Counted from the first letter of the stretch, positions 18,263 through 59,742 are shown. The stretch: 64,000 nt of DNA from an uncultured Isosphaeraceae bacterium (GCA_963823685.1 CAWGMM010000001.1:60355-124354), one strand, 5' to 3'. A program made the numbers and translations. Notes: generated by a model from the sequence alone, not told the origin.

Positions 18263-18401
18263 GAAAGTTTTCCTCGGTTGGGGCACGACCTGCAGGATGT
18301 TCGGGAACACGTGTCGTCTCCGTCGGGACTGCAAAGCTTGAATCAATGATCTACTGGTTGAAATTCACATCACTATTTAACATCATGAGGCTACTCGATT
18401 C

Positions 18402-22050: not shown

Positions 22051-22139
22051 CCCGCCGCCTCGTCACTTCGGGACAGACGATCCCGCCGGGGATCGTCTGT
22101 CCCAACCATAACACAAGCACGGGGAGCCGGCGGAAACCA

Positions 22140-26946: not shown

Positions 26947-26983
26947 TAAAGAGTTCTCCTGAAATTTATATCTAACATGATCA

Positions 26984-28546: not shown

Positions 28547-28915
28547 GATCGACCCCGTGCTGGAATGACCCTGCAAGGCGGCGTTCCTGGTGACTTTTCG
28601 GGTTGGATCGTGGGTGCGGAACTCGTTCGCGATCAAGGTGGCCGCCCTGCATTTCGCGGGCTGCCGCCGGGGTGCTCGGGTTCGATTTCCGGGTGGACAC
28701 CTGGTGAGCCTTCGACTGCGTTTTACCAGAACCGAGACGCTCCGTGCATCGTCTTTCCGTCCCGCGCACTCCATTTTGCCACCAACCGGCAGAACTCGGC
28801 GAACTCGCACCGCGGGGACGAAACCCGTCCGGGTTTCGTGGGTTTAATCGGTCATGCGACCGGTACAAAGGTCTCGCAACGTCGCCAACGCCCTCATTTC
28901 CCGGGAGGATGCGTG

Positions 28916-30382
28916 ATGCAGCGCCCCTGGCGATTCCTGATGTTGATGTGCCTCACGCTTACGGCCTCGAGCGAGGCGGCCGAGCCATCGATCAGGCCGA
29001 ACATCATCGTCATCCTGGCCGACGATTACGGTTACGGCAGCGCCGGCTGTTATGGCGGTCAGGGGGTGAAAACGCCGAACCTCGACCGGCTCGGTCGCGA
29101 GGGCCGTCGTTTCACCCAGGCCTACGCGCCGGGCTCGGTCTGCTCGCCGACCCGCTATGGCCTGATGACCGGCCGCTACTACTGGCGTACGAGTGTCAAG
29201 GATGGCGAGGTGCTCCCGGGCAACGCCCCGTTGCACATCGAGACCGACCGGATGACGCTCGCCTCGCTCTGCAAGGGCCAGGGCTACCGGACCGCCGCGT
29301 TCGGCAAGTGGCACCTGGGCCTGGGCTCGGAGCGAACCACCGACTGGTCCGTCACCTTGAAGCCCGGCCCCCTTGAGATCGGCTTCGACCACTTTTTCGG
29401 CCTGGCGGCCAATCCCTGGAACGGCCCCCACACCTTTATCGAGGATCGCGGGCTGACCGGCCGGGTCCCCGGCCAGCCGGCGATCGTCCAGGGCCAGCGC
29501 GAGCAGAGCACGACCAGCGGCATCACCCAGCCCTGGGACGAGACCCGGATCATGCGCACCCTCACCGATCACGCTGTCGCCTGGCTTGAACAGAACCAGG
29601 CCAACGGCCCCTGCTTCCTTTACTTCGCGCCCAACGCGGTCCACATGCCAGTGGTCCCGAATCGAGCGTTCCGAGGAAGTCCTCTGGGTTCCTACGGCGA
29701 CTTCATCTCCGAGCTCGACTGGTCCGTAGGCCAGCTTCTCGACGCGCTCGACCGGACACACACCGCGGACAAGACCCTCGTGATCTTCACCAGCGACAAT
29801 GGCGGCGTGGTGAACCCTAATAACGAACCGTCGTCCAGCGCCATGAAAGCAGGGCTGGCCATCAACGGCGCCCTGCGCGGGGGCAAACACGACATCTGGG
29901 AAGGTGGATTTCGCGAGCCGTTCCTCGTTCGATGGCCCGGCCGCGTCCCGGCCGGCTCGGTGAGCGACCAGGTGATCTGCGTGACGGACGTGCTCGCCAC
30001 GCTCGCGGGCATCCTCGGAGTTCCGCTCCCCGACGGCCAGGCCGAGGACAGCTTCGACGCGCGCGAAGCCTTCCTCGCCACTCATCCCGCCCGGCCCGTG
30101 CGCGACCACGTCATCCTTCAGGATGCCCACGCCACCTACGCCGTCCGGTCGGGCGACTGGAAACTGATCGAGCGGCGCGATGCTCCCTCATTCACCCCTC
30201 GCAACGCCGGCGCCGCCAAGAAGATCGCCGCGGCTCGCAAGAAGGAAGCCGGGCACGACGAGCTGTTCAACCTGGCCAGCGACCCGGCCGAAACCAGGGA
30301 CGTCCACGCCCAACATCCCGACGTCGTGGCCCGGCTCCGTCAACTCCTGGCCGATTCCCGCGGGAATGGGCACACGCGCTGA
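28916..30382 (+). CDS. sulfatase (formylglycine-dependent), divergent from the previous gene
   Basis: Signal peptide; IVILADDYGYG...SVCSPTR motif. Confidence 0.85.
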   Translation: MQRPWRFLMLMCLTLTASSEAAEPSIRPNIIVILADDYGYGSAGCYGGQGVKTPNLDRLGREGRRFTQAYAPGSVCSPTRYGLMTGRYYWRTSVKDGEVLPGNAPLHIETDRMTLASLCKGQGYRTAAFGKWHLGLGSERTTDWSVTLKPGPLEIGFDHFFGLAANPWNGPHTFIEDRGLTGRVPGQPAIVQGQREQSTTSGITQPWDETRIMRTLTDHAVAWLEQNQANGPCFLYFAPNAVHMPVVPNRAFRGSPLGSYGDFISELDWSVGQLLDALDRTHTADKTLVIFTSDNGGVVNPNNEPSSSAMKAGLAINGALRGGKHDIWEGGFREPFLVRWPGRVPAGSVSDQVICVTDVLATLAGILGVPLPDGQAEDSFDAREAFLATHPARPVRDHVILQDAHATYAVRSGDWKLIERRDAPSFTPRNAGAAKKIAAARKKEAGHDELFNLASDPAETRDVHAQHPDVVARLRQLLADSRGNGHTR

Positions 30383-32566: not shown

Positions 32567-32958
32567 CTTCCACCAGAAATTGCGTCCTGGTTTATCGAAA
32601 AACCAAGAATACACACTTTCACGTAAAAATGCCGTTGGGAGGCGAGGCGCTCGCCGGTCACACCTCGGGAAGCGGGGTACCGCTTGAGCCGTCCGGGCCG
32701 TCGGCGTCCGATCAACGCCGGGTGCTCGCCGGGGTCGAGACCCCGCGGTGCACGTCGAGCGATGACCATTCACCGGCGCCCGGGACGGCGGAATCCGCGG
32801 ACCGCAGGGCTCCCTTTTCGTGCTGCCGCTGCGCGGCCATTGCCTGTGAAGGCAACGCCAACGCGGCGGCCAACCAGGCGTTCGCCCGCCTCCCGCGGGC
32901 GCGTGGGTCGAGACGTTTTGACGCGTCTCGGGCTCGGTCGGTGTTCAGCCGACTGCGG

Positions 32959-33030
32959 AGCAGTGGACGGGAATCGAACCCGTAACGTCCAGGTTATCAG
33001 CCTGGTGCTCTACCCTTGAGCTACCACGTC
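32959..33030 (-). tRNA. tRNA-Ile (anticodon GAU)-like; cloverleaf is intact except for two mismatched acceptor-stem pairs (2-71, 3-70)
   Basis: D-arm GCTC-AAGGGTA-GAGC, anticodon arm CCAGG-CTGATAA-CCTGG, variable loop ACGTT, T-arm ACGGG-TTCGATT-CCCGT. Confidence 0.55.
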
Positions 33031-33448
33031 CTGATACCGCGAAGTTTTGATCCCAGTCACGGAACGCCCTGGACCGATCGTCGCGAGACGAGGCCGGTGC
33101 GCCGCTGGCTTGTCGGTATCAGTCGCTTGCCTGGAACTCATGCGAGGGCCATGGACTCACCCGGCTCTCGCAATTGACGCCGATGGGAATCGAACCCACC
33201 TCGACCAGAACGGACCACGTCGGTCTCCTGGCCGATTTTCCGGCCTCTCCGGCTCCAGCGTCTCGTCTTGCCTGTCGGGACTTGACTCGATTCGCGTCGC
33301 TTCGTGACCGACCTGTCGTCCTCGACATCGTTTTCATTTTCGTAGACGCGCGTGTTCCGCGCGATGTTCGCGCGGCATCGTTGCTTTTTCCTGTGACACG
33401 AACCCGTCGAACCGAGGTCACGCTCCAGGCAGGCGAATCGTCCTCGGG

Positions 33449-34393
33449 TCACTCCGCCAGACCACGCCTGGCCTGTTCCAGGAGTGCCTTCATGCGCTCG
33501 ACCTCTGCGGCGAGCCTGTCGGCACGCTGCCGCTCCTGCTCGGCCATTTGTCGTTCTTGCTCGGCCCGCTGCTGTTCCTTCTCGGCCCGCTGCTGTTCCT
33601 TCTCGGCCCGCTGTTGTTCCTTCTCGGCCCGCTGTTGTTCCTTCTCGGCCCGCTGCTGTTCCTTCTCGGCTCGCTGCTGTTCCTTCTCGGCCCGCTGCTG
33701 TTCCTTCTCGGCCCGCTCTCGGGGCGTCAACACCAGGGCGCCGGTGGTGTCGATGAGCCGGAGCATCACGCCCTCGCCTTTCAGCATGAAGCCCAGTTCT
33801 TCACTCGTGAGACGGTCGTCATCGTCCAGGTCAATCGGCACGTAGTGCCCGCCAACGAGACGAAAGCCGACCAGCGGTGGTCGAAGGTATTCGCCCTCCG
33901 GGTCGAACAGGAAGTATTCGCGGACGCCCAGCCGCTCGTAGAGCCGGAGTTTCTCGCTCAGGTCTTCGCGCCAGGTGCTCAACGAGGCCATCTCGAACAC
34001 AACGGCCGGAACCGCGCCATTCTCGCGCCAGGTGAAGAACGAACGGCGGTGGCCCCGGCCCACTCCCTTGACGACCATGACATCGGGCGCGACTCGCGAC
34101 CTGGGTTGGCCCTCTTCCCAGTACCAGAACATGTCGGCGGCGATGAAGTCGCTGGTGGGCAGGACATCATGCAGCACCTCGTACAGGAAGATGATCGCCA
34201 GGACGTGAAGGCCGGTTTCACCCATGGGCTGTCCATCCGATGAGGGATACTCGACCTCGTCACGGTGCGATGAGGCGATCAACTGGGTGGTGATGGACAT
34301 GAGCACTTCTCCGCGATACCCGCATCCCTCTGGACCCCGACAACCCGTGCTGACTCGCGAGACCTCGAAATCCGGCTTCAACCCGGTACTCAA
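33449..34393 (-). CDS. Uma2-family (DUF820) nuclease-like protein, paralog 2, with a different heptad-repeat tail
   Basis: Core of about 180 aa nearly identical (also at nucleotide level) to 30424-31380; tail AEKEQQR repeated 8 times. Confidence 0.8.
   Translation of the reverse strand: MSTGLKPDFEVSRVSTGCRGPEGCGYRGEVLMSITTQLIASSHRDEVEYPSSDGQPMGETGLHVLAIIFLYEVLHDVLPTSDFIAADMFWYWEEGQPRSRVAPDVMVVKGVGRGHRRSFFTWRENGAVPAVVFEMASLSTWREDLSEKLRLYERLGVREYFLFDPEGEYLRPPLVGFRLVGGHYVPIDLDDDDRLTSEELGFMLKGEGVMLRLIDTTGALVLTPRERAEKEQQRAEKEQQRAEKEQQRAEKEQQRAEKEQQRAEKEQQRAEKEQQRAEQERQMAEQERQRADRLAAEVERMKALLEQARRGLAE
33530..33725. repeat. 21-bp tandem repeat array (about 8 copies, unit cttctcggcccgctgctgttc) encoding the heptad tail of Uma2 paralog 2
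   Basis: Direct reading of the sequence. Confidence 0.85.
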
Positions 34394-34677: not shown

Positions 34678-34964
34678 CGATCTCCCCTTCGGTGATAGGT
34701 AGAGGGTTTGAGGCGGTGAATCGATGATCGCCTCTCTGATGGAAACGTCACGAGCAAACCACATGCCGGAATCCACTTCCGGAACCGTCACCGCCCGCGA
34801 GATCGAAGCTGTTGGCATACCAGCGTCGCCGGGTCATGGTTAACGCAGTTCGGCCTGTCGTGGCGTTACGACGTCTTCGTGGTCACGTGAGAACGACAAT
34901 GAGGAACGACAGGCTGTCCAACTTCGAAAGGGCAAACCCCTGGATTTCCAGGGGTTTTGCCGGA

Positions 34965-35007
34965 TATGCCCGGCAGGACTTGAACCTGCAACCTTTAGCT
35001 CCGGAGG
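34965..35007. repeat. 43-bp direct repeat identical to the 3' end of tRNA-Arg(CCG) at 42307-42349 (att site, distal end of the integrated element)
   Basis: atgcccggcaggacttgaacctgcaacctttagctccggaggc is present identically at both positions. Confidence 0.85.
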
Positions 35008-35208
35008 CAAAAAGCCTACCGACGTAAGTGATGCCATCAAAGAACTTACGTCGAGTGATCCCGGCCGTTGCACTGTACGTTGCTCCAACATTGGTGAAAC
35101 CGACCCGCTGGCCGCGTTCGTCGCCGGCCTGACCGATGCCGACCGGCAACGGCTCGCCTCCCTCTTGCTCGACAAGGCCGAAGGGTCCGACCGAGGGGGG
35201 CTTGACCA

Positions 35209-35391
35209 ATGACCGAAACCGTCGTGACCTGCGATCGGTGCGGAACCCGGATCGATACCGATCGATCGAACCTGGCGAGTGTGTGCGGGCCGATTCGAGC
35301 GCGGCGGGCGGAGATCGATCTTTGTATGGCGTGCGTGGATGCATTCGAGACGTGGCTTCAACGCGGGATCGGGCGGGAGGAACGAGCATGA
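35209..35391 (+). CDS. small zinc-ribbon-like protein (CxxC...CxxC)
   Basis: VTCDRCGTRIDTD...LCMACVDAF four-Cys arrangement; ORF only. Confidence 0.3.
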   Translation: MTETVVTCDRCGTRIDTDRSNLASVCGPIRARRAEIDLCMACVDAFETWLQRGIGREERA

Positions 35392-36026
35392 GCGACCACA
35401 CCAACGGGACCGGGACCGAGAAGCGGAACAAACGAGGGCGACCGACGGTGCTGACCGAGGCCGTCCAGGCGACGATCCTCGCGAACCTGCGAGCGGGGAA
35501 CTATCTGGCGACGTCATGCCGCGCGGCGGGGATCTCGCCGCGAACCCTGGAAACCTGGCGACAACGGCATCGCGAGGGCGATCCGCGAGCGGATCGGCTG
35601 ACCGATTTCGTTCGGTGCGTCAAAAAGGCGATCTCCGAGGGCGAAACGGACTTGCTGGGGAAGGTTCGCGCCGGCGGACCGGGTTGGCAAAGCGCCGCGT
35701 GGATCTTGGAGCGAAGGTGGCGGGATCGATGGGGACGGAACCCCAACGTGGTTGTGAGCAGCGCGACGACCGGATACCGGACCGGAAGAACCCTTGGAAC
35801 CGGATTTCTCCGGTTTCGACGTCGGCGAGCTGGAAGCGTACCGCGATATGACGCGGCGAGCGTATGGCTCGTCCGGGTCCGCTCAACCCGCAAAAGCGCG
35901 GTAGAGTACACGCATCGGGACGGTCGCACTCCGGCCAGAGTTCGACCAAGCGGACCCGGTCGGCGCGCGGACCCCCTGCCCGCCACCGACTGGGTCCGAC
36001 CCGTATTGCAGGGGGACTCTCCATGA
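35388..36026 (+). CDS. phage terminase small subunit-like HTH protein
   Basis: KRGRPTVLTEAVQATILANLRAGNYLATSCRAAGISPRTLETWRQRH...AWILERRWRDRWGRN resembles the TerS N-terminal HTH family; ATGA overlap with the next ORF. Confidence 0.45.
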   Translation: MSDHTNGTGTEKRNKRGRPTVLTEAVQATILANLRAGNYLATSCRAAGISPRTLETWRQRHREGDPRADRLTDFVRCVKKAISEGETDLLGKVRAGGPGWQSAAWILERRWRDRWGRNPNVVVSSATTGYRTGRTLGTGFLRFRRRRAGSVPRYDAASVWLVRVRSTRKSAVEYTHRDGRTPARVRPSGPGRRADPLPATDWVRPVLQGDSP

Positions 36027-36673
36027 CGTCATCGCGAGACGCGCTCCGGGTATCGGAGCGGTTGCTCCAGTTAATTCATTCGGGATCGCTACCATCCCTA
36101 GGTCGGCTGACCTGGGATCGGACCGCGCCGCAACCACACATCATCAACTGGCTGCGGACGACGCTGGCGGCTCTCAACGAGTGGGTGAGCGGTCCGGTCG
36201 CGACCGATGACGATCCGCGAATCCGCGCCGCGCGGGAGCTGGTCCGATCCCTGCACGATCGTCTGTGTCCGCGACTTGACAATATCGCGAGCGGACGGGA
36301 TGGGATCACACTTGATGATGCGTCGAAACTCGTGGACGCGATCGTGATATTGCAAGACGCCGCACTGGATGATGCCGACGAACCCGAACCCGCGTGCTCT
36401 GAACCGGAGGGCTCGGGCGCGTCGGCGCGCCGTGCTGGCGACGATCTGACCGAGACAGAGGACAACATCCTCAAGGCATGCGGTGAGCTTGGAGCGTACG
36501 ACCTGCGATCGGCGCGGACCAAGGACGAGATTGCGCGGCGGGCCGGGTATACCTCAAGTGCCGCCCGGAACGTTCGGTCCGCGTTCGAATCGCTGAAAGC
36601 ACGCGGCATTACAACCGCCAAACGCAAGTCCGGGACCTGGCTCACACACGCCGGGCGCGAATTCGTGTCATAA
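36023..36673 (+). CDS. hypothetical protein with C-terminal winged-helix DNA-binding domain
   Basis: C-terminal ILKACGELGAYDLRSARTKDEIARRAGYTSSAARNVRSAFESLKARGI wH-like segment. Confidence 0.4.
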   Translation: MTSSRDALRVSERLLQLIHSGSLPSLGRLTWDRTAPQPHIINWLRTTLAALNEWVSGPVATDDDPRIRAARELVRSLHDRLCPRLDNIASGRDGITLDDASKLVDAIVILQDAALDDADEPEPACSEPEGSGASARRAGDDLTETEDNILKACGELGAYDLRSARTKDEIARRAGYTSSAARNVRSAFESLKARGITTAKRKSGTWLTHAGREFVS

Positions 36674-36785
36674 ATGTCAGCCGGCCTGACACGAATGGGG
36701 TCATTTTTGACACGAATCCACACGGCTATACTTCTCACGTCGGCCACGCACTGTGCAGGTCGAGACTCGACATCAGGAGTCCGCC

Positions 36786-37010
36786 ATGTCCGCATCCGCA
36801 TCCGCAACGATCGAGAGTCCGGTTGAGCTGATCGACGTCCGCGAAGTCGCGCGGATGCTGAGCATCAGCGAACGACATATCTGGCGATCCGAGGACCGGG
36901 GGCTGATGCCGCGCGGCGTGCGAATCGGCGCGTCCGTCCGCTGGTCGCGCTCCGCGCTCGAAAAGTGGATCAACGACGGTTGCCCGCCGGTCCGCAAACC
37001 CGCGCGATGA
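36786..37010 (+). CDS. AlpA-family phage transcriptional regulator / excisionase-like HTH protein
   Basis: LIDVREVARMLSISERHIWRSEDRGLMPRGVRIGASVRWSRSALEKWI matches the AlpA/Xis HTH pattern. Confidence 0.65.
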   Translation: MSASASATIESPVELIDVREVARMLSISERHIWRSEDRGLMPRGVRIGASVRWSRSALEKWINDGCPPVRKPAR

Positions 37011-37143
37011 CGCGCCGCCGGTCGAACCCCGTGGTCTGACCCCCCCGAAGGGTTTGACCCGTCAACCTATTCCGACATCGGTGAATCAACAAACGAAAAT
37101 GCCCGCCAGGTGCCGCGAAGTCCTGGCGGGCGGAGGCGTCGCT

Positions 37144-37626
37144 ATGCGCAAACGTCTGTCTGATATCGTACCATCGACCGAGGCGGAGTCAATCCGCCGG
37201 ACCTGGGACTCGACCGAGGCCGCGCCCGAAATGGGTCCGCTGCCGGCCGGAGAGTACCGTTGCATCGTCGAGTCCATCGACGTGCATGTGGCGAAATCGG
37301 GAACACCCGGCGTCAAAGTCGCGATGCGCGTTCACGATCCGGCTGCGTTCAAAGGTCGCAAGCTATGGGCCGATCACTGGCTCACTCCGGCCGCGCTCCC
37401 GATCACCAAGCGCGAGATCAAGCATCTCGGAATCGAGACGCTCGACGATCTGGAGAGACCTCTGCCGACCGATCGGCACATCATCATGAAGTGCTGCGTC
37501 ATTGTCCGAAAGGACGACGATGGGACCGAGCGGAACCGAGTCCGAAGCTGGGAGTTCGACGGCATCGCCACGCCGCAAGACGTCGAGCCGTTCGCGCCTC
37601 CCGCCGATGGGGAGGTCCCGTACTGA
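37144..37626 (+). CDS. hypothetical protein (element-borne)
   Basis: ORF only. Confidence 0.3.
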   Translation: MRKRLSDIVPSTEAESIRRTWDSTEAAPEMGPLPAGEYRCIVESIDVHVAKSGTPGVKVAMRVHDPAAFKGRKLWADHWLTPAALPITKREIKHLGIETLDDLERPLPTDRHIIMKCCVIVRKDDDGTERNRVRSWEFDGIATPQDVEPFAPPADGEVPY

Positions 37627-39559
37627 CATGGGCTCGACCCCCTGCCCGTTCGGGTTCCGAATCCAGGGTCCGACGCACGGGACACGGCATCTCATCGATT
37701 GGGATGCCGCGTTCCGGGCCTATGCCAGTCTCGACCCCCGGATCGACCCGAGCCAAGAGGCATATCTATCTGCGTTCACGTTCCCGGTCGAGTTTCAGGG
37801 ACCATCTTCGCTCGACCGGCTCGACGCGCGGCTACGCTGGCCGTTGCGGGGCTCGCTGGCTGTGGTGGGACATCGACCGGGAAGACAATCCGGGGCACGC
37901 CCTGGCGGACGCCAAGCGGCTTGTTGGCTCGTTGCTCGCCCGGTTCAAGTCGCTCGACGATGCCGACGTTCTGGCGTTCTTCTCCGGGAGCAAGGGATTC
38001 CATGTCGGCAAACCGATGTTCTGGGAACCCGAGCCGACCGCGACGTTTCACAAGGCGGCTCGACGGCTCGCCGAGCGGTTCGCGGCCGATGGTCGCGATC
38101 ACCATCGACGCGGGGTCTATGACAGCGTGCGCGCGTTTCGCGCTGCCCAACTCGCGTCATCCGAAGACCGGTCTGTTCAAGCGCCGGATTGACCATGACG
38201 CGCTCATGAGTTTGTCGATCGACGGCATCCGCCGGCTCGCCGAGCAACCCGCCGAGTTCGACCTGCCGGACCCGCGTCCGTCCGCCGCCGACGTCGCCAC
38301 CATGCGGAGCCTTTGGTCCGAAGCCAACGCCCATGACGCCAAACACAGCCGAAGGGTCCGACGCCAGGGGGCTCGACAACGGGCCGGCTCAACCGTCAGA
38401 CGTTCGATTTCATCCAGCGACGGGGCGGGGCCTGGCGACCGTCATCGGTTGCTGTTCTCCGCCGCCGCGAACCTGGCGGAGTTCGGTTGCTCGCCCGAAC
38501 TTGGCTTATGCGTTGCTCGCCGAGTCCGCGCTCGATTCGGGCCTGAGTCCGTTCGAGGTCCGCCGTCAGATTGGGTGCGGGCTTGCTCATATAAAAGGAC
38601 AACCGACATGAAGGGACCGGGGTTCGTCAGCGCGGCCGACGCTATTGGCTCATGGCGGGATCGACGTGCTCTCCGGTCGCAAGCCGACGCTCTGGACGGT
38701 CGGCATCGGGGGGCCTGGCGTCGGTGGAGATCGGGCCGGGGTTCATCGTGCTCATCGGTGCGCCGCCAGGGGCGGGTAAGACCGCGCTGGTCTGTCAGAT
38801 GACGCTCGACGCCTTGCGGACCGAGCCGTCGCTCAGGTGCTCGATCGCCAACGTTGAGGTCTCGCCCGCCGTCTTGCTCGACCGCCAGCTTGCCCGGCTT
38901 GGCGGGATCAACCTGGCAGAGATCCGGCATCGCCGGCTTGGTGCCGAGCATGCCGACCGGCTGGACTCGGGGGTTGGCCGCGATCGAGGGAATCGCCGAC
39001 CGACTCGCGTTCCTGGAATCGCCGTTCGACCTGCGCGAACGTGGCCGCATCGGCGGATACGTTCGGGGCGGACCTGATCGTCATCGACTACGTCCAACGC
39101 TTCGGCTCGCCCGGTTCGCAAGGGGACGGCCGGGTATCGATGAACGCGCTCATGGGGTTCCTGCGCGAGTTCGCCGACGCGGGCTGCGGGCTCATCGTGG
39201 TCTCGTCGGTCGCGCGGCAAAAGGACTCCAAGGGTGGTTCGTCATACGAAGATCTCAACATCGCGTCATTCCGGGAGTCGAGCGAACTGGAGTTCGGGGC
39301 GGACTCGGCTTTCATGCTGGTTGCCGACCCGGACGACGCCTCAAGCGTGACTCTCCGATGCTTGAAGAATCGCCACGGCGAGCCGGTTGACGTCGCCCTG
39401 CGATTCGACGGGGCTCGCCAGTCATTCACGCCTCGCGAGGCGGACGGGCCGAAGGGCAAGCCGTCGAGCAACGAGCAAGCCCTGCGCGACCTGGCGGAAC
39501 TATGGGGACGGACCCCGCCGGCCGATGACGACGCGGGGGACGATGCCGATGGGTACTGA
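37624..39559 (+). pseudogene. primase-helicase: AEP-type primase (Prim-Pol) + PriCT-like + DnaB-like P-loop helicase, split over at least 4 frames
   Basis: AEP motifs (AYLSAFTFPVEF; WDIDREDN; SGSKGFHV; NSRHPKTG), PriCT-like RHRLLFSAAANLAEFG, Walker A GAPPGAGKT, Walker B DLIVIDYVQ, arginine finger KNRHGE, distributed over overlapping ORFs in different frames. Confidence 0.6.
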
Positions 39560-40013
39560 CGCGCTGGCGGAACACGCTCGACGGCTGGCGGAGCTGGATG
39601 CGAGGGAAGCCGCCGCGCGTCGAGCCAGGGGCGAGCCGGACCCGCCGCCGCCCGAACCCAAGCCGCGCCCGGATCGACCCGCCGATCGGACCCGCCAGGG
39701 ACGGGGCCAGCCGAAGGGTCGGACGCGCGGACGCGAGTTCGCTCGACGCCAGGCGATCCGCAATGCGTTCGCGGACTGCCTTGCCGGGCTCGACCGGGGG
39801 GAGATCGCCGTGTGGGTCCTGCTCGACCGGGACACCAAGCCGGACGGAGCCGCGACGTGCCGCTCAATCCGACCTGGCGCGTCGGGCCGGGATCAACCCC
39901 CGGACGGTCCGCCGCGCTCTCGATTCGCTCGTTGCCGGGGACTGGTCAAGATCGTCCGCCAGGGGGGTTTCAACCGTGGCATGTCCACTTATCGAATTTG
40001 CAAACCTTCATGA
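39549..40013 (+). CDS. winged-helix/HTH protein (frameshifted, two frames)
   Basis: LARRAGINPRTVRRALDSLVAG in one frame and GLVKIVRQGGFNRGMSTYRI in another. Confidence 0.35.
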   Translation: MGTDALAEHARRLAELDAREAAARRARGEPDPPPPEPKPRPDRPADRTRQGRGQPKGRTRGREFARRQAIRNAFADCLAGLDRGEIAVWVLLDRDTKPDGAATCRSIRPGASGRDQPPDGPPRSRFARCRGLVKIVRQGGFNRGMSTYRICKPS

Positions 40014-40015
40014 AT

Positions 40016-40094
40016 CCCACAGAGGGCATGGGTGTCCGGTTGACCCCCTCCCACAGAGGGCATGGGTGTCCGTCACAGAGGGCATGGGTGCCCT
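40016..40094. repeat. three direct repeats of cacagagggcatgggtg(t/c)cc: iteron-like, candidate replication origin or recombinase arm sites
   Basis: Sequence at 40016-40037, 40051-40073 and 40075-40094, immediately downstream of the primase-helicase region. Confidence 0.6.
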
Positions 40095-40206
40095 ATATCC
40101 CAGTGTCTTACCCCTACGGGGTGAAGACACACGCACTGAGGTACTGACGTGCTGACGCACACGTACCCCAGTGCGGTTCGTAGGTCATCAGATCGGTAGG
40201 TAGTCG

Positions 40207-40602
40207 ATGCGCATGCCGTTCGGACAACATCGTGGTTGCATGCTTGCAGACGTTCCTGATCGCTACCTTTGGTGGGCGATCCGGGAAGCCGGCGCGACGG
40301 TCGATCGGTATCCCGGCTTGCGGCGTGCGATCGATATCCGCCTGGGAGTCCCGTACGCGAGCCCAACGGCCGGACCGTCCAAACCCCCGCCGACCGGCTC
40401 AACGTCGCGCCACGCGGACGCCAGGGCACTTGTCGAGTGCGTTCGCGGCGTGCTCAAGATCGCGTACCGCGAAGAGTCGATGCGATGCCATCCCGATCGG
40501 GGTGGATCGACCGACCGAATGATCGGGATCAATGAACTCAACGACCGGCTCAACGCGCTACTCGACCGGCAACTATCCGAATTTCTCAAGCAACGGTCTT
40601 GA
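40207..40602 (+). CDS. small protein with DUF3820/QSregVF_b-like N-terminus and C-terminal J-domain (HPD motif)
   Basis: MPFGQHRGCMLADVPDRYLWWAI; ...YREESMRCHPDRGGSTDRMIGINELNDRLN. Confidence 0.45.
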   Translation: MRMPFGQHRGCMLADVPDRYLWWAIREAGATVDRYPGLRRAIDIRLGVPYASPTAGPSKPPPTGSTSRHADARALVECVRGVLKIAYREESMRCHPDRGGSTDRMIGINELNDRLNALLDRQLSEFLKQRS

Positions 40603-40675
40603 ATGTCGCGGGTAAAGTGTGTAGACTGAATCGCGCCTTGATGAAATGGTGTAGGCTCGACGGGAGAATGGATCG

Positions 40676-42352
40676 ATGGGCAACGTTTACCGGAAGCAAG
40701 TGACCCGCCCGTTGCCGCCAGGGGCGGAGATCATCGAACGCAAGGGCGAACGGCTCGCCCGCTGGCGGGATGCCAGGGGCAAGATCCGAACCGCCCCCCT
40801 GACCGAATCCGGGGACCGCATCCGGGAAACGTCCCGGACGTTCCATGCCCGCTACCGGACCGGAGAGGGAACCATCGCCGACGTTCCGACCGGCTGCCGA
40901 GATGAGCAAGCCGCGCGGGCCGTTCTCGCCGACCTGGAGAAGCGGGCCGAAATGGTCAAGGCCGGAATCCTCAAGACCGCCGAGTTGCAAACCGCCGATC
41001 ATGCCCGGACGCCGATCGCCGAGCATTTCGATGCCTACCTGAACCATCATGACGCGGCCGGATCGGTCGCGTTGCATCGCCACAACGTTCGGACCTACCT
41101 GGATCGGATCGCCGCTGACTGCGGATTCCGCCGGCTCGCCGACCTGGATCGGTCCGCGTTCGAGAGCTGGCTGTCCCGCGAGACCAAACGCGGCCGGTCG
41201 GCCCGGTCCCGGAACACGCACCGGGCAACGCTCATCGCGTTCTGTCACTGGTGTTCCAGGCCGGAGGTTGCCCGGTTGGCGTCCAACCCGTTCAAGGGAA
41301 TCCCGAAAGCGGATGAGAAAGCGGACCCCCGCCGCAAGCGCCGGGCCATGACCGAGAGCGAGTTGACCCGGTTGCTCGACGTCGCCCGGACCCGCCCGCT
41401 GACCGAGGCCCTGACCGTCAGGAGAGGCAAGGCGAAGGGTTCGACCCATGCCAAGGTCCGCCCGGAGGTCCGCGAACGGCTCGACGCTCTCGGCCGGGAA
41501 CGCGCGTTGATCTACAAGACGCTCATCCTGACCGGACTTCGCAAGGGCGAGTTGACGAGTCTGACGATTGGTCAAGCCTGTCTCGACGGACCCCGCCCGT
41601 ACCTGGACCTGAGTGCGGCGGACGAGAAGAACCGGGAAGGGGCCTGGCTGCCCCTGCGGGCCGACCTGGCGGACGACTTGCGGCAATGGCTTGCCGACCG
41701 GCTGACATCGCTCCAAGACGACGCCAGGGGCCAAGGCGAGCCGATCCCGGTCCGATTGCCCGCCGACATGCCGTTGTTCAACGTTCCGGCCGGTCTGATC
41801 CGCATTTTCGACCGGGACTTGAAAGCCGCTGGGATCGCCAAGCGCGACGACCGAGGCCGGACGCTTGACGTCCATGCCCTGCGGACGTCGTTCGGCACGC
41901 TCTTGAGCGCGGGCGGGGTTCCATTGCGGACGGCTCAAGCCGCGATGCGGCATTCCGACCCCAGCTTGACCGCGAACGTGTATACCGACCCCCGGTTGCT
42001 CGACGTGGCCGGAGCGCTCGACGCCCTGCCGGCGCTTCGGCTCGACCGTCCCGACGTCGATAGCATGCGTGCGACCGGGACGGTCGGCGGGTCGAACCCT
42101 TCGGCTCGTTTGTGCCAGGGGCCTGTCACGTCCGTTGCACTAAATGTTGCTGCGAATCCGTGCAACGAGAGACAAGGAAGTTCAATTGGTGGCAAAATGA
42201 ACAGGACCGACCTGGAATTGGCCGGTCCTGATCGGTTCGCCGTAACTTCCATCTCTGACAGGGGAAATCATCTCGTGTCATTGCCTGACACTGGCTTCCC
42301 CTCAGTATGCCCGGCAGGACTTGAACCTGCAACCTTTAGCTCCGGAGGCTAA
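40676..42352 (+). CDS. int: tyrosine-type site-specific integrase; ORF runs into the tRNA-Arg gene
   Basis: Catalytic region LDVHALRTSFGTLL...RTAQAAMRHSD...ANVYTD (R..H..R..Y arrangement); N-terminal SAM-like/arm-binding domains. Confidence 0.85.
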   Translation: MGNVYRKQVTRPLPPGAEIIERKGERLARWRDARGKIRTAPLTESGDRIRETSRTFHARYRTGEGTIADVPTGCRDEQAARAVLADLEKRAEMVKAGILKTAELQTADHARTPIAEHFDAYLNHHDAAGSVALHRHNVRTYLDRIAADCGFRRLADLDRSAFESWLSRETKRGRSARSRNTHRATLIAFCHWCSRPEVARLASNPFKGIPKADEKADPRRKRRAMTESELTRLLDVARTRPLTEALTVRRGKAKGSTHAKVRPEVRERLDALGRERALIYKTLILTGLRKGELTSLTIGQACLDGPRPYLDLSAADEKNREGAWLPLRADLADDLRQWLADRLTSLQDDARGQGEPIPVRLPADMPLFNVPAGLIRIFDRDLKAAGIAKRDDRGRTLDVHALRTSFGTLLSAGGVPLRTAQAAMRHSDPSLTANVYTDPRLLDVAGALDALPALRLDRPDVDSMRATGTVGGSNPSARLCQGPVTSVALNVAANPCNERQGSSIGGKMNRTDLELAGPDRFAVTSISDRGNHLVSLPDTGFPSVCPAGLEPATFSSGG

Positions 42353-42379
42353 CGCTCTATCCAATTGAGCTACGGGCAC
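42306..42379 (-). tRNA. tRNA-Arg (anticodon CCG)
   Basis: Acceptor GTGCCCG/CGGGCAT (G1-U72 wobble), D-arm GCTC-AATTGGATA-GAGC, anticodon arm TTAGC-CTCCGGA-GCTAA, T-arm GCAGG-TTCAAGT-CCTGC. Confidence 0.8.
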
Positions 42380-42415: not shown

Positions 42416-43441
42416 TCAAGGGGAGTAAAGCGTCAGAGCCGGGGGCGGGTGAAGGGTCAGGCCGATTCCAGACAGCGGTTGGAGCTCCTCCAGTTCGGTC
42501 CGGCCGCCGACGATCAAGGGGGTGCGCTGGTGGACGCTCTCGGGAACGATGTCGAGAATCCGGCGGCGGCCGTCGGTGGCGAGGCCGCCGGCTTGCTCGA
42601 CGAGGAAGGCGATCGGGCTCGCCTCGTAGAGGAGCCGGAGCTTGCCGCCGGGATGGTCGGCGGTCGGCGGGTAAAGGAAGACGCCCCCCTTGAGAAGGGT
42701 CCGGTGGAAGTCCGCGACCATCGAGCCGATGTAGCGCAGGCTGTATCTTTCGGCCCAGGCCGCCCGGCTTGAGGCGATCGAGATAGGTCCGGTAGGCCGG
42801 CGGAAAGGCGTCGCTGTTGCCCTCGTTGACCGAGTAGTACGAGCCCTGGTCGGGGATGCGGATGTTCTCGTGGCTCAGGACGTAGGCGCCGATCGCGGGG
42901 TCGAGCGTGAACCCGTGGACGCCGTTGCCCACGCTGTAGACCAGCGTGGTCGAGGAACCGTACACCACGTAGCCCGCCGCCACCTGGCGGCTTCCCGGCT
43001 GGAGCAGCCAGCTCGTCACGTCGGATGTGTCGACCCCCTCCGGCCGACGCAGGATCGAGAAGGTCGTGCCCACGCTCACGTTCACGTCAATGTTCGATGA
43101 TCCATCGAGCGGATCGAAGATCACCGCGTAGCTGGCCCGCTCCGAGTGGTGCGGGACCGTGATCGGGTGGTCGTTCTCCTCGGAGGCGAGGATGCCGATG
43201 CTCTCGCGGACGCTCAGGCAGTGAAGGAGCACGTTGTTGGCGTAGACGTCGAGCTTCTGCTGGATCTCGCCCTGAACGTTGATCTCGCCCTCGCGCCGAG
43301 GATGTCGCTCAGGCCGGCGCGTCGGACCTTCGCCTGGATCATCTTGGTCGCCAGGGTGATTCCGGACAACAGCCACGAGAACTCGCCCGAGGCGCCGGGG
43401 AAACGCTTCTGGTCCTGGAGGATGTGTTGCTGAAGCGTCAA
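42416..43441 (-). pseudogene. fbp: fructose-1,6-bisphosphatase class 1, split over three frames
   Basis: N-terminus MTLQQHILQDQKRFPGASGEFSWLLSGI, middle NVQGEIQQKLDVYANN...DPLDGSSNIDVNVSVGT, C-terminus [17 protein letters not shown]...[11 protein letters not shown] lie in different frames. Confidence 0.7.
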
Positions 43442-43519
43442 GATCGGCCGATCGGGGAGCGGGCAGCCACTCCTCGACGCGCAGGGGCCGGGTCATGCCG
43501 GGTTTCGGATTCATGGGGA

Positions 43520-44770
43520 GGTTCCTCGATCGAACGGGAGAAGGGTTCGACACGATGGAATCGAGCCTACCAGTGCGGGCCGCGCTGGAGATAGACAGGA
43601 TCGGATCAAAGCACGCCCGCGGTGATCTCGGTCAGCGCATCGAGGAAGCTGTCGATGTCGTCCGTCGGTCGTGAACGGGCCGGGGCTGAGGCGAAGCGTG
43701 CCGTCGGGGAAGGTGCCGAGGGCGCGGTGGATGTAGGGGGCGCAGTGCAGGCCGGGCCGGACGGCGATCTCGAAGCTGGTGTCGAGGATCGAGCCGAGGT
43801 CCTGGGGCGTCAGAGGCGTCGGGGACGATCGAGCGACAGGGCGCCGACGTGGGTGGTCGGGTCCCAGCGGCCGGCGACCTGCCAGCCGTCGGCGGACTCG
43901 GCCCAGTCGACGACGCGCTCGAAGCAGGGCGACCTCGTGCCGGCGCAGGGTCTCGGGCCCGCGCTCGGCGACCCAGGCGACCCCGGCGGCCAGGCCCGGC
44001 GACGCCCAGGACGTTGGGCGTGCCCGCCTTCGAGATAAGTAGGGCAAGAGCGTCGGCTGGGTCTGGCTCGACGAGTCGCCGCCGGTGCCCCCCTCGCGCC
44101 AGGCGCGCAGGCTGGCGCGCGGGCCGACGTAGAGGACGCCGGTGCCGGTCGGTCCGTAGAGCGCCTTGTGGCCGGGGAAGGCCAGCAGGTCGATCGGCGT
44201 GGCCTGGAGGTCGATCGGCGACCACGCCCGCCGTCTGCGCGGCGTCGACCAGGTAAAGCGCCCCGGCCTCGCGGACGATCGCGCGCGATCGCCTCGATCG
44301 GCTGCACCGTCCCCAGCACGTTCGAGGCGTGCGTGTGCGCCACCAGGCGGGTCCGCGGCGTCAGGGCGCCGGCGGATCGCGTCGGGGTCGAGGTAGCCCT
44401 GATCGCGAGGCGACGCGCGTCAGCGTGATGACCCCGGCCTTTTCCAGGGCCCGCGAGCGGCCGGCTGATCGAGTTGTGCTCGAGGTCGGTGGTGATCGAC
44501 GTGGTCGCCCGGCCGCGATCACTCCCTTGATCGCCATGTTCAGGGCGTCGGTGCAGTTGAGCGTGAAGATCCAGCGCTCGGGCGCCTTCGCCGTGGAAGA
44601 ACTGGTTCAGGGCATGCCGCGCGTCGTCGAGCGCCCGCTCGGCCGGCGACCGCCATCCGATGCCCGGCCCGCCCGGGGTTGGCCAGCTGCGTGCGCGCGA
44701 AGCGGTCGAGGGCCTGGTAGACGGGCTCGGGCTTGGGAAAGCTGGTGGCGGCGTTGTCGAGGTAAATCAT
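43520..44770 (-). pseudogene. class V aminotransferase (cysteine desulfurase / SufS-like), multiply frameshifted
   Basis: [24 protein letters not shown] (N-terminus), AHTHASNVLGTVQPIEAIA (middle), IAVRPGLHCAPYIHRALG (C-terminus) in different frames. Confidence 0.6.
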
Positions 44771-44793
44771 GATCAGGGCCGTCCCGGCGGAAA

Positions 44794-45873
44794 TCAACTT
44801 CCCACGAACTGGGCGTAGAGCGTCCGGGCCTTGGCGATGTCGTTGGTCCCCTTGATGATGGCGCGGCCGTCGGGGAAGACGGTGAACTCGTGGCCCTCGG
44901 TGGCGAACCGGAGCATGAAGGCGTTGTGCCGGACATCGCCCAGGGGGGCGAGGCGTCGGGCCAGTTCGGGGAAGTCGAGCGGGCTCGGCCACGGCGGGTG
45001 GCGACCTGGACGGCGTTCCGGCCGCAGAGCGTCGTCGTGTGCGAGCCGAGGGCGCCGTCGAGCCACTCGAACTGGCGGCGCTGACAGCACGGACAATCGA
45101 CCTTGCCGAGCAGGCCGGCGACCTTGAGCCGGCGGAACGACCAGTCCCAGAGGTCGACCATGATCAGCTCGCGGTTCAGGGCGTCGATCGCGCCCGCTGA
45201 GGAGCTTGATCGCCTCGACGGCCTCGAACGACGCGATCACGGCGACCGCCGGGCCGAGCACGCCGGCCGTCTCGCAGGTCGGGGTCATCCCGGGCGGCGG
45301 GCTGGTCTCGATCAGGCAGCGGATGCACGGGGTCTGCCCGGGCAGGATCGTCATCGTCTGCCCTTCGCTGCCGATCACGCCGCCGAAGATCCACGGCTTG
45401 CCGAGCTTCACCGCCGCGTCGTTGATCAGGTAGCGGGTCTCGAAGTTGTCGGTCCCGTCGAGGATCAGGTCGGCGTCGCCCACCAGGTCGAGGATGTTGG
45501 TGTGGTCGATGTCGGTCACGACCGGCTCGATCGTCGATCGTGCTGTTGATCTGCGCGGAGCTTGCGCGCGGCGGCCTCGGCCTTGGGCAGGTTGTCGGCG
45601 ACGTCGTGACTCGTCGAAGAGGATCTGGCGCTGGAGGTTGTGCGTCTCGATGAAGTCGCGGTCGACGATCCGGATCCGGCCCACCCCGGCGCGGGCCAGG
45701 TGGTTGGCCAGCACCGTCCCGAGCGCACCGCAGCCGCAGATCGTGACCCGGCTGGCCATCAGACGCCGCTGGCCGGCCTCGCCCAGCGCCGGGAAGCGGA
45801 CCTGGCGGCTGTAGCGATCGAGTGATTCGGCGTCGAGGTCAACGGCCATGGTCTCTGGGATATCCACGGACAA
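44794..45873 (-). pseudogene. ThiF/MoeB/MoeZ-type E1-like adenylyltransferase, frameshifted
   Basis: LDRYSRQVRFPALGEAGQRRLMASRVTICGCGALG; C-terminal CPCC...C Zn motif in a second frame. Confidence 0.65.
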
Positions 45874-45916
45874 GACGATGCTTGGCTTGCGGCGGACGGA
45901 AGAACGAGGGCCTGGC

Positions 45917-46195
45917 TCAGCCCCCGGCCACGGCGGGGATGATGCTCACCTCGTCGCCCGCGGCGACGGCGGTGGCCAGGTCGTCGAGGTAGCGGATGTC
46001 CTCGTTGTTGACGTACACGTTGACGAACCGGCGGAGCTCCGCGCCGTCGAAGATGCCGCTCGCGGAGCGCGGGGTACTGTTCGCCGAGGTCGGCGAGGAC
46101 CTCGCCGACGGTGGCACCCGTCGGCCTCGACGACGTCGTGGCCGCCGGCGTGGGGGCGGAGCGGGGTGGGGATGCGGACCTGCGGCATGGTGAAG
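45917..46195 (-). CDS. ThiS/MoaD/CysO-like sulfur-carrier protein (C-terminal GG), frameshifted near the N-terminus
   Basis: ...[35 protein letters not shown]-stop; N-terminal [12 protein letters not shown] is in an adjacent frame. Confidence 0.55.
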
Positions 46196-46307
46196 TCGTT
46201 CCCTTCTGGCGATCGTTCGCGGAATCGACGATTCCGTCGACGCCGGTTCCGCGTCGGTCCGAGTTCCGGGGGACCGACCCGGACGAGCTTACCCTCGAGA
46301 TCGACTA

Positions 46308-47700
46308 TCAGGCGCCGCGCCGGCGAGCTCGGGGCTGGCGGCGGCGGGCTCGAGCTCGTGGGCATGGCCGTGAGCGGCCGACCAGGGCCTCGAAGGCGTC
46401 GAGGCTGGGCTTGATGACGACCGGCCGCGCGATCCGGTCGATCAGGGCTTCCTGGGTCTTCAGGCCGTTGCCGGTGATGCAGAGGACGGTCGAGCCGTCG
46501 CGATCGATCCGGCCCTGCTCGATCAGCTTCTGGGCGACGGCCAGGGTGACGCCGCCGGCGGTCTCGGCCCAGATCCCCTCGGTCTCGGCCAGGAGCTTCA
46601 TCGCGTCGACGATCGCGTCGTCGTCGACGTCCTCGCTCCAGCCGCCCGAGTCGCGGATCAGCTGCGAGGCGAAGTAGCCGTCGGCCGGGTCGCCGATCGC
46701 CAGGCTCTTGGCGATCGTGTTCGGGTTGCGGATCGGCTTGACCTTGAACGCCTCGGTCTTGACCGTGTTCGAGATCGGGTTGCAGCCGGTCGCCTGGGCG
46801 CCGAACATCCGGGTGCGTGACCGGCCCGTCGATCAGGCCGAGCTTCTCGAACTCCTTGAGCGCCTTGAGCAGCTTGCCGATCAGGCTGCCGCCGGCCATC
46901 GGGGCGACGACGTGGTCGGGTGCGCGCCAGCCGAGGTCCTCGGCGATCTCGAAGCCCATCGACTTCGACCCCTCGGCGTAGAACGGCCGGAGGTTCACGT
47001 TGACGAACCCCCAGCCGAACCGGAAGGCGATCTGCGAGCAGAGGCGGTTGACGTGGTCGTAGTTTCCCTCGATCGCGATCACCTTGGCGCCGTAGATCGT
47101 GGCGCCGAGGACCTTGCCCTGCTCGAGGCCGTCGGGGATCAGGACGTAGGCCTCGAGCCCGGCGGCGGCGGCGTTGGCCGCGACGCTGCCGGCGAGGTTG
47201 CCCGTCGAGGCGCAGCCGACCGTCTGGAAGCCGAGCTCGACCGCCTTGGAAAGCGCCACGGCGACCACCCGGTCCTTGAACGAGAGCGTCGGGTGGTTCA
47301 CCGCGTCGTTCTTGATGTAAAGCTCGCGCACGCCCGAGCACCTTGGCCAGCCGGTCGGCCCGGATCAGCGGGGTGCCGCCGACGTGCCGGCCGACGGTCG
47401 GCTCGCCGTCGACCGGCAGGAGCTCGCGATACCGCCACATCGTCCGCGGCCGGCTCTCGATCGCCCGGCGGCTCAGGGTCCGCGCCACCGCCTCGTAGTC
47501 GTAGCGACTTCGAGCGGCCCGAAGTCGTCGGTGCAGAAGTTGAGCGCTTCCTTGGGATAGAGCTTGCCGCAGAGGCGACACTTCAGAGTCCGCGAACAAG
47601 TTCAGACACCGGCGATCCTCCTCTTCAATGCGAGACCGTTCTCGGGCAGGCGACGCGAACGCCGGTCCAGACGGAGGCGAGGCCGTCGAAGACACGCGTC
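46308..47700 (-). pseudogene. threonine synthase-like PLP enzyme with N-terminal Cys4 zinc ribbon, multiply frameshifted; candidate O-phosphohomoserine-dependent homocysteine synthase
   Basis: KCRLCGKLYPKEALNFCTDD (Zn ribbon), MWRYRELLPVDG...GGTPLI, LYIKNDAVNHPTLSFKDR (PLP lysine), C-terminus KMFGAQATGCNPI... lie in three frames; GAGGAGG RBS before a GTG near 47690. Confidence 0.6.
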
Positions 47701-58408: not shown

Positions 58409-58723
58409 CTATTCAACAAGCCGGACGTGCCGGACGCCCCGCGTGCTCAGCCAGCCCAGGAGCGATTCCTGCTCCTCGGTCAGCTCGACCTCGGTCATGT
58501 TGGCCGTGTCGAGGGGTGAGACGAGGTAAAAGACGCCTTCGTCGACCCAGCGCGCGACTTCCTCGGGGTCGAACCAGTATTCGTTCTCGCCCAGTGCCGG
58601 GACACCCGGCGTTCCCGGCGCCGCCATGAAGTAAACGAGCTGGCTCCGCAGCCGCGCCGAGAGCGGATAGGGCGCCACCTCGGGACGATCGATCGGGACG
58701 AGTGCGGGACGTGACTGAGCCAT
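58409..58723 (-). CDS. hypothetical protein
   Basis: ORF only. Confidence 0.3.
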   Translation of the reverse strand: MAQSRPALVPIDRPEVAPYPLSARLRSQLVYFMAAPGTPGVPALGENEYWFDPEEVARWVDEGVFYLVSPLDTANMTEVELTEEQESLLGWLSTRGVRHVRLVE

Positions 58724-58802
58724 CGTTTCCTTCGTGTTGCCGTCGTTTGTGGTCGTGATGAGGTCAGGCAGGTTGAAGCCTACCCGACCGGAGGGATCGC
58801 CT

Positions 58803-59471: not shown

Positions 59472-59742
59472 GAGCAGCGCGCGGGCGCAGCCGGCGCTCG
59501 AGGCGACAGCGCCCAGGCGTCGTTCAGGCTGAGGATCGAGCCCCCCGGCTCGATCAGCGCCCGGCCAGTCGGCGGGCGAGGAACTCCCCCGAGCCGGCCA
59601 CGACGGCGGATCGCGGCCGGCCGATGGACGCGTGGCAAGCGCCGCTCTGCGCCGGCCTCAAGCCGGGCCAGCAGCGCCTCATCGGCCGCGCGGGCGAAGG
59701 CCAGGGCGTCGTCGTCGCTGAAGCCGTCGCGGTCGGTCCCGA

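Follow-up and report, generated by a model that had tools for sequence, protein, structure and literature searches.

The window analyzed here is a stretch of 64,000 nucleotides from an uncultured Isosphaeraceae bacterium (GCA_963823685.1 CAWGMM010000001.1:60355-124354), and it carries an element of ~7.3 kb inserted at a gene for tRNA-Arg(CCG). That this is a mobile element in a tRNA gene can be considered secure. Its integrase gene (int) continues in frame through the recombination site, such that attP, as rebuilt from the sequence, lies inside the int reading frame, and integration divides the gene behind the part that encodes the catalytic domain. The element has its own replication genes and an orphan small terminase subunit (TerS). 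An integrative, self-replicating element that lives as a phage satellite forms the best single explanation of these features, to which we assign a probability of about 0.55.

The recombination site and the integrase reading frame

The element is bounded by a direct repeat that is exact over 44 bp (Table 1) and that continues, after one mismatch, with two further matches (47 nt at 98%). The repeated sequence corresponds to the 3' part of the tRNA-Arg(CCG) gene, beginning with the anticodon loop. An initial annotation, made from the same sequence, had recognized an exact tRNA-derived duplication, which it is, but had put its length at 43 bp and had started the second copy one base too high. The tRNA gene itself is intact, in line with that annotation: both ARAGORN and Rfam call it on the minus strand (42305/6-42379, 70.6 bits). 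The attL copy scores 27.3 bits, under the Rfam threshold of 29 bits for a tRNA, and thus represents a displaced fragment and not a gene. The hairpin on the host side of attL probably served the tRNA-Arg gene as terminator until the insertion displaced it. In two metagenomic contigs (L098 and L100) the identical tRNA is unoccupied and has a similar hairpin immediately behind it, which suggests that the element has separated the tRNA from its former terminator. These two contigs and a third (L101) contain the identical tRNA with no integrase alongside; the exact empty-site pattern had no match in the metagenome contigs, where those with the flank formed by fbp, the gene beside the tRNA (L099 and L102), end within 260 nt of the tRNA. 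Within the element, the hairpin at 42202-42230 may be a terminator that the element supplies to the rebuilt tRNA gene; the total count of sites with a hairpin and a T-tail was not above chance.

The tyrosine integrase that had been noted to abut the tRNA was confirmed by its domain match and by its catalytic residues (R289, H400, R403, H426 and Y436), all of which are present. The open reading frame (ORF) extends for ~100 codons past the catalytic domain, runs through the attR core and ends at a TAA that is provided by the tRNA gene. The core corresponds to int codons 544-558 and the split lies 108 codons beyond Y436. This arrangement appears general: in 70 of 73 loci of related elements the int frame stays open into the tRNA, against 2.6 expected from base composition. 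Moreover, when attP was rebuilt in silico for the 18 relatives that could be delimited, the int frame was unbroken over the core in every case and continued for another 62-300 codons. In the excised form of the present element, the 558-aa Int together with a conserved tail of 67 codons makes a protein of 632 aa.

The tail has the consensus peptide DPLAxLAAALLxLSPxDRxRLAAML, which in the window reads ETDPLAAFVAGLTDADRQRLASLL, and terminates at a TGA (35210-35212). It is preceded by a variable linker of ~10 to 60 residues, in which the frame is always kept. A comparison of 15 elements showed that codon positions 1, 2 and 3 of the tail differ at frequencies of 0.33, 0.31 and 0.56, and that 33% of the differing codons are synonymous, versus 7-8% in the shifted frames. 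This pattern points to selection at the protein level in the frame of int. A conserved start codon was not found for the tail; in fact, the window and four other elements lack any in-frame ATG, GTG or TTG ahead of the motif. In addition, six called proteins in public metagenome data contain Int, core and tail as one polypeptide (P0028, P0044, P0049, P0064, P0098 and P0113; 613-626 aa). One of these, P0044, is encoded in a tandem array of two elements (87-91% identical). The tail had no match in Pfam, and a database search with its consensus returned short orphan ORFs alone.

The tail stop overlaps with the start of a gene for a Zn-ribbon protein (ATGA, 35209-35212), the stop of which overlaps in the same manner with the start of terS (ATGA, 35388-35391). 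The two overlaps imply that the three genes (int, Zn-ribbon and terS) are joined on the circle into a single translationally coupled string, whereas in the chromosome int is at one end of the element and the other two genes are at the other. The excised form would then be the main source of TerS and of the Zn-ribbon protein, and the C-terminus of Int would report the state of the element, integrated or free.

The region around the core also has the features of a binding site for a lambda-type integrase. The 20-nt pattern CCGTTGCACTNNANGTTGCT occurs in the entire window at two places only, one on each side of the core in attP as rebuilt (Table 1), where none is expected. Family-wide, a pair of TTGCAC sequences 12 nt apart is found ~170 and ~158 nt ahead of the core, and a second pair in the same orientation ~57 and ~69 nt behind it. 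Most simply, these pairs are arm-type sites for the binding of Int. Considering the residues R..HxxR..H..Y in combination with core-type and predicted arm-type sites, the enzyme shows the properties of the lambda-Int-like (heterobivalent) integrases. The strings 'CTxxCT' and 'VAPxVA' were considered as protein motifs and rejected, as they are better explained by one DNA arm-site repeat that is translated in two frames.

The family of related elements and the small terminase subunit

Among 8000 candidates scored, 2873 integrase homologues were found at an E-value below 1e-10, the top 120 of which are 59-70% identical. Relatives are present in at least 585 species-level genomes (one genome per species was scanned), almost all of them Planctomycetota (Isosphaeraceae, Gemmataceae, Pirellulales, Planctomycetaceae, Thermoguttaceae and Phycisphaerae), with a few in Hydrogenedentota; Gemmata, Singulisphaera, Planctomicrobium and Schlesneria relatives were among those found. 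A convergent tRNA gene, on the minus strand, is situated directly behind int in 76 of the 80 loci that were fetched, and the targets across the family include the tRNAs for Arg, Val, Pro, Gly, Ala, His, Asp, Trp and Thr. The 18 elements that are delimited by tRNA-derived repeats measure 7.3-11.2 kb, within a range of 7-13 kb for the family. They share a common order, i.e. attL, tail, variable cargo, a protein of ~300 aa ('c8'), AlpA, a second protein ('c7'), DUF669, primase, helicase, HTH_36, repeats, an XRE or J-like protein, int and attR. AlpA was present in all 18 complete relatives and the HTH_36-like initiator in 16 of the 18. In the gap behind HTH_36 each relative has its own, different repeats, as would be expected of iterons matched to the initiator. 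The cargo in the variable slot consists of methyltransferase-, helicase- and protease-like genes; capsid and tail genes were absent from it.

Some of the relatives deserve separate mention. The 'c8' proteins (~230-440 aa, 20 members) are always encoded directly before alpA (e.g. L018 3544-4437, L059 3599-4783 and L065 4545-5513) and combine a variable N-terminus with a conserved basic C-terminus (LPSFATW..LR); they are candidates for a master regulator or sensor. On contig L103 (JGI 3300033066, 15.3 kb), two or more related elements (87-91% identity) follow one another in tandem with a period of ~8 kb, and every int continues in frame into the tail of the element behind it. Contig L104 (Logan SRR20363679, 13,273 bp), which encodes P0049, has a terminal overlap of 30 bp, and its ends are crossed at 100% identity by a contig from another sample (L105, SRR20363642). 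It thus represents a circle of 13,243 bp, without a tRNA gene. This circle encodes a full-length Int of 620 aa and, as cargo, a WD40 protein, a cpYpsA-like protein and an Rrf2-like protein. More distant integrase relatives (38-52% identity) were found on predicted viral contigs of 10-82 kb in IMG/VR (L084-L094), with AlpA directly upstream of int like the xis-int pair of a prophage; the integrase clade may be shared with full-size phages of planctomycetes.

The TerS-like protein of the initial annotation matches the 'terminase small subunit' profile phrog_4102 with an E-value of 1.1e-24 (profile positions 4-114 of 166), and it has the TerS fold. The viral contigs in IMG/VR contain 98 homologues. 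In 8 of the 10 tested, and by Pfam in one more (L135), the gene is followed on the same strand, within 0.1-2 kb, by a gene for the large terminase subunit (TerL). Nothing resembling TerL was found in the window or in 82 loci of the family. To judge from sequence and context, the TerS is genuine and an orphan. In general, a TerS without a TerL cannot package DNA alone. A word-index protein search gave two TerS homologues only, with a genomic context (L083) that provided no information.

At least three other members of the family have a TerS of a different PHROG family in the same slot at the left end: L022 (phrog_2538/4102), L042 (phrog_3218) and L075 (phrog_57). The recurrence of different orphan TerS types in one slot is what would be expected of satellites that are adapted to different helpers. 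In L075 a gene for a head-maturation protease is found near terS (phrog_53, 1.9e-62). More specifically, this element, inserted at tRNA-Arg(ACG), has in its segment 1509-4551 the phrog_57 TerS, an ORF of 187 aa and an S49 head-maturation protease of 630 aa with a long C-terminal extension. Capsid and portal genes were not found in it, and an IstB-like ATPase replaces the usual replication module. It is possibly a capsid-remodelling variant.

Lifestyle of the element and proposed cycle

The main rival to a life as phage satellite is an integrative plasmid-like replicon that is independent of phages, switches between chromosomal integration at the tRNA and replication as a circle, and reaches new hosts by vesicles, transformation or unknown helpers, with the TerS-like protein as cargo or as a DNA-binding regulator. 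We consider such a replicon possible and rather unlikely. The full replication module with iterons would suit it well, and the circular relative, assembled from independent samples, could equally be a plasmid-like episome. Several other observations also weigh against a satellite. A recognizable TerS is present in 4 of the 18 delimited relatives, most of which carry the ~300-aa protein of unknown function and assorted cargo instead, and only 13 relatives of the integrase were found in IMG/VR. The search for a helper phage was without result: tblastn of TerS against 50,697 phage genomes (INPHARED) gave no match and hence no close helper candidate, and a prophage was not seen among the ORFs sampled from the window. 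Compared with the phage-inducible chromosomal islands (PICIs), the capsid-morphogenesis component was not found in any ORF of the element (Pfam and PHROGs), and the order att-terS-alpA-rep-ori-int-att differs from the PICI order of int, regulator, pri-rep, (morphogenesis) and terS. In many integrated copies the tail has been called as an ORF of its own (60-105 aa), and the functions proposed here for the tail and for excision-coupled expression are putative. Finally, the assembly has frameshifts in the genes for primase, helicase and initiator, so that their intactness is assumed from the error pattern of the assembly as a whole. Nevertheless, a replicon without any link to phages does not readily account for a protein with the TerS fold whose family adjoins TerL in phages. 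The recurrence of different TerS families in the same slot, once together with a prohead protease, is hard to explain without packaging in capsids. Moreover, genes for partition, a relaxase or conjugation were not seen in the element.

The division of the primase, helicase and initiator genes across frames would also fit the remnant of a decaying prophage or genomic island, immobile and with real pseudogenes. The initial annotation had left the choice between sequencing indels and decay open for the replication gene; the indels hold and the decay does not. Codon-usage Viterbi segmentation revealed that in many parts of the window the frame changes on the same strand at intervals of 100-300 bp, so the breaks in the element have their like all over it. 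In the housekeeping gene fbp (class-1 fructose-1,6-bisphosphatase, 42416-43441, minus strand), which is broken into three frames, a comparison with an intact orthologue (L099, 81% identity) located single-base indels at ~42750 and ~43293, exactly where the frame shifts. In addition, the integrase has its closest relatives in 'MFD' metagenome-assembled genomes, which are of the long-read (nanopore) type. The split of the replication genes, as far as can be read from the sequence, reflects indel errors throughout the assembly, and decay was rejected as its cause. Considering also that the att repeats are exact, that int is intact and that the compact architecture has been kept in hundreds of genomes, a remnant is highly unlikely. 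Owing to the many single-base indels every ORF call in the window needs care. Stretches rich in frame switches, with an error profile of the long-read type, are found for instance at 21070-26984, 43291-47572 and 58410-61567.

Least probable of all is a small autonomous temperate virus, the structural genes of which would have to be sought among the unannotated ORFs. There are indeed several ORFs without a family match (the Zn-ribbon gene, 36023-36673, and the c8 and c7 genes of the relatives). However, an element of 7.3 kb with ~12 genes leaves ~1 kb of unassigned coding sequence, matches to capsid, portal or TerL proteins were not obtained anywhere in the family, and the TerS could not package the DNA by itself.

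As a satellite, the element could go through the following cycle. A signal, possibly infection by a helper phage, would activate AlpA and the 558-aa Int, upon which the element would excise as a circle. Circularization would fuse int in frame to the 67-codon tail, resulting in the 632-aa Int, and would at the same time position the coupled Zn-ribbon and terS genes downstream of int, such that they are expressed from the excised form only. The initiator would bind the iterons and load helicase and primase for replication of the circle. TerS would then bind the element DNA and recruit the large terminase of the helper, leading to packaging into helper capsids. In a new cell, the full-length Int would integrate the element at tRNA-Arg via the core and the four arm sites, by which the tRNA gene is rebuilt.

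Extending this to the whole family, we tentatively propose that these are phylum-wide bacterial integrative replicons, and probably satellites, in which integration and excision toggle both the C-terminus of Int (558 versus 632 aa) and the connection of int to the operon of TerS and cargo. This would amount to a built-in sensor of the state of the element, governing the direction of recombination and the expression of the packaging genes. Such elements would form a bacterial, non-suicidal counterpart of the SSV-type integrases and the first satellite family of the phylum. As a design, the position of attP suggests a simple physical switch for the direction of recombination and for excision-dependent gene expression. 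To our knowledge, few phages of Planctomycetota have been characterized, and a family that is present in so many species offers a ready handle on horizontal transfer in this phylum. The orphan TerS, supported by sequence, fold and genomic context, makes the hijacking of a helper phage directly testable. Moreover, the module of integrase and attP is compact (core and four predicted arm sites in ~330 bp) and the family uses many tRNA targets. The module could be developed into a tool for the genetics of planctomycetes, in which manipulation is difficult.

Gene content and comparison with known systems

Table 1. Features of the element and its borders in window coordinates.
Feature	Position	Strand	Basis
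Host-side hairpin AAACCCCTGG-ATTT-CCAGGGGTTT, just beyond attL	34934-34957	-	sequence read
attL core, displaced 3' half of tRNA-Arg(CCG)	34965-35008	.	exact repeat, sub-threshold tRNA score
int C-terminal coding tail, detached; holds conserved peptide DPLAAFVAGLTDADRQRLASLL	35009-35212	+	frame continuity, codon-level selection
P' arm-type repeat pair CCGTTGCACT-GTAC-GTTGCT (predicted)	35065-35084	+	pattern search, family layout
Zn-ribbon-like ORF, 60 aa, CxxC...CxxC	35209-35391	+	weak family matches only
TerS, orphan small terminase subunit; 3' end uncertain, possible frameshift	35388-35771	+	phrog_4102
216-aa protein, C-terminal winged helix-turn-helix (wHTH)-like region, slot directly before alpA	36023-36673	+	positional analogy with 'c8' family
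AlpA-like excisionase / transcriptional regulator	36753-37010	+	HTH_17 1.4e-07; Phage_AlpA 22.3 bits; phrog_66
DUF669 protein, resembles phage single-strand DNA-binding proteins	37144-37626	+	PF05037 24.4 bits, above cut-off; phrog_378
AEP-type primase, PriCT-like C-terminus	37637-38599	+	tblastn of intact 325-aa L002 primase; split over frames 2, 3, 1, 2
DnaB-family replicative helicase, own gene	38706-39559	+	DnaB_C on two fragments; phrog_239, phrog_19; tblastn of L002 helicase
wHTH (HTH_36-like) protein, frameshifted	39556-40013	+	tblastn of L002 HTH_36; weak HTH_24/HTH_36 matches
Three iteron-like direct repeats CACAGAGGGCATGGGTG, in 190-bp gap behind initiator gene	40015-40094	.	repeat search
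131-aa protein, N-terminal QSregVF_b/DUF3820-like motif, short J-like segment with HPD	40207-40602	+	PF12843 1.6e-06
Tyrosine integrase, integrated form, 558 aa	40676-42352	+	PF00589 8.7e-11
P arm-type repeat pair CCGTTGCACT-AAAT-GTTGCT, in int 3' extension (predicted)	42132-42151	+	pattern search, family layout
Strong hairpin with T-rich tail, tRNA strand, ~75 nt beyond tRNA 3' end	42202-42230	-	11 pairs, 8 G-C
tRNA-Arg(CCG), intact; its 3' 44 bp (42306-42349) = attR core	42305-42379	-	ARAGORN, Rfam

All genes between the att repeats are on the plus strand, as the initial annotation had it, and most of the functions it had listed were recovered. The Zn-ribbon ORF and the three iteron-like repeats were found as described, and the AlpA-like regulator was corroborated by HTH_17 and by a Phage_AlpA score above the cut-off of 21 bits. 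Homologues of TerL and of capsid, tail and lysis proteins were absent from the ORFs of the element (Pfam and PHROGs), which agrees with the earlier statement on capsid, tail and lysis genes. The 'winged-helix protein' kept its C-terminal wHTH-like segment, but the gene had no significant family match (Pfam and PHROGs); in analogy to the 'c8' proteins its product is a candidate regulator. Likewise, the 'J-domain' protein does have the HPD motif, but its Pfam DnaJ score is sub-threshold (13.7 bits) and its N-terminus is of the QSregVF_b type; among the relatives the same protein was found in one (L018). Two genes had been missed, one for the DUF669 protein, colinear with the DUF669 of relative L002, and one for the HTH_36-like protein, a probable replication initiator. 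The iteron-like repeats behind it are the probable origin of replication.

The single gene for an AEP-primase/PriCT/DnaB-like helicase that had been proposed turned out to be two. Both functions were found, and the genes are adjacent as in the intact relatives (325 aa and 313 aa), where they are separate, which ruled out a primase-helicase fusion. In a three-frame read the primase displays the motifs DxD, SGSKGFHV and PNSRHPKTG, with weak matches to Prim-Pol. The DnaB_C domain spans 38652-39559, and tblastn of the helicase gave matches in frames 3 and 2 (two or more frames). A scan for sigma-70 promoters remained at chance level.

The surroundings have the typical housekeeping content of a planctomycete, with paired sulfatases (26984-30382) and a DUF1501 gene. 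Two tandem ammonium-transporter genes lie at 16757-19895 on the minus strand. A tRNA-Ile(GAT) gene (32957-33030, minus strand), 2 kb left of attL, has no element adjoining it and is surrounded by ~700 bp that appear non-coding (32580-33297). A Uma2-family gene (33449-34393, minus strand), encoding a putative restriction endonuclease, contains a repeat (33498-33738) of at least eight tandem 21-nt units. The units encode (EKEQQRA)n, which extends the C-terminus by a heptad-like coiled coil.

Dependence on a helper phage is the defining property of satellites. Satellite P4 is an integrative replicon of ~11 kb that has int, an AlpA-like regulator and a primase-helicase, and that is packaged by its helper via the cos sites of the latter, without a TerS of its own. 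The present element has functional counterparts of int, AlpA and primase/helicase, and homologues of psu, sid, delta and epsilon were not found in it (Pfam and PHROGs).

The core of a PICI consists of an integrase, an alpA/merR/stl regulator, a primase-replicase, capsid morphogenesis and TerS, with tail, holin, portal and head-tail connector as forbidden components (PMC10085698). Judged by function, the element has int, AlpA and TerS and, in the AEP primase and DnaB-type helicase that are frameshifted in this assembly, a putative primase-replicase as the fourth of the five components; it has none of the forbidden ones. The median size of PICIs is 9.5 kb, and those of the SaPI type also lack the capsid-morphogenesis gene (PMC10085698). 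The likeness extends to the small size, the site-specific integrase, the AlpA-type regulator, the putative primase/replicase and probable origin, the own TerS, the variable accessory slot and the absence of tail and lysis genes. The elements differ in that int is located here at the 3' end of the array, that primase and helicase are separate and accompanied by DUF669, that attP lies inside int as reconstructed, and that the host belongs to a new phylum. More than 99.9% of the PICIs recognized by SatelliteFinder are from Proteobacteria or Firmicutes, and 'Planctomycet' is absent from the text of that study (PMC10085698). In line with the first impression that such an element had not been described in planctomycetes, no phage satellites of Planctomycetota were found in the literature searched. 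Of the PICI-like satellite proposed initially, the insertion in the tRNA, the intact int, AlpA, the replication module, the orphan TerS and the lack of virion genes all stand, whereas the PICI gene order, int-alpA-pri/rep-ori-terS, must be abandoned: the actual order is terS-alpA-rep-ori-int, which on the circle places terS between int and alpA. It is plausible, by analogy, that the element works like a PICI, without being filed as a member of that group.

Compared by description, the PICMIs of Vibrionaceae are also very small, share a core of int, AlpA and primase, carry cargo that can consist of defence genes and have no capsid-remodelling genes. In contrast, their integration site adjoins fis instead of being a tRNA gene, and their three-protein core is without TerS (PMC10803314). 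The tycheposons of Prochlorococcus, some of which look like phage parasites, resemble the present family in their tRNA-targeting tyrosine recombinase, their cargo, their abundance in one phylum and their tandem arrays (bioRxiv 10.1101/2020.12.28.424599). They belong to another phylum and apparently use another integrase family, whereas the elements described here have a conserved module of DUF669, primase, helicase and initiator, and an attP inside int.

The closest parallels for the latter arrangement are found elsewhere. In the mycobacteriophages with integration-dependent immunity (BPs etc.) attP is near the 3' end of a gene, and integration alters the C-terminus and behaviour of the protein; that gene encodes the repressor and the part removed is a degradation tag (PMC4557955), whereas here int itself is affected and the tail does not end in a tag-like manner. 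The SSV-type 'suicidal' integrases of archaea likewise have the recombination site within the int ORF, such that integration splits the gene (PMC8371274, PMC7253208). In their case integration inactivates the enzyme. In the present bacterial element the split comes after the catalytic domain, and integration leaves every catalytic residue in the gene and removes nothing but the 67-codon tail. According to a 2021 review, self-disrupting integrases are exclusively archaeal (cited with the SSV type: PMC8371274, PMC7253208), a view that is contradicted by the open int frames of the family loci, the circular relative and the six full-length ORFs. Of particular interest in the present element are the large number of its relatives, the phylum in which they occur and the conserved position of attP inside int.

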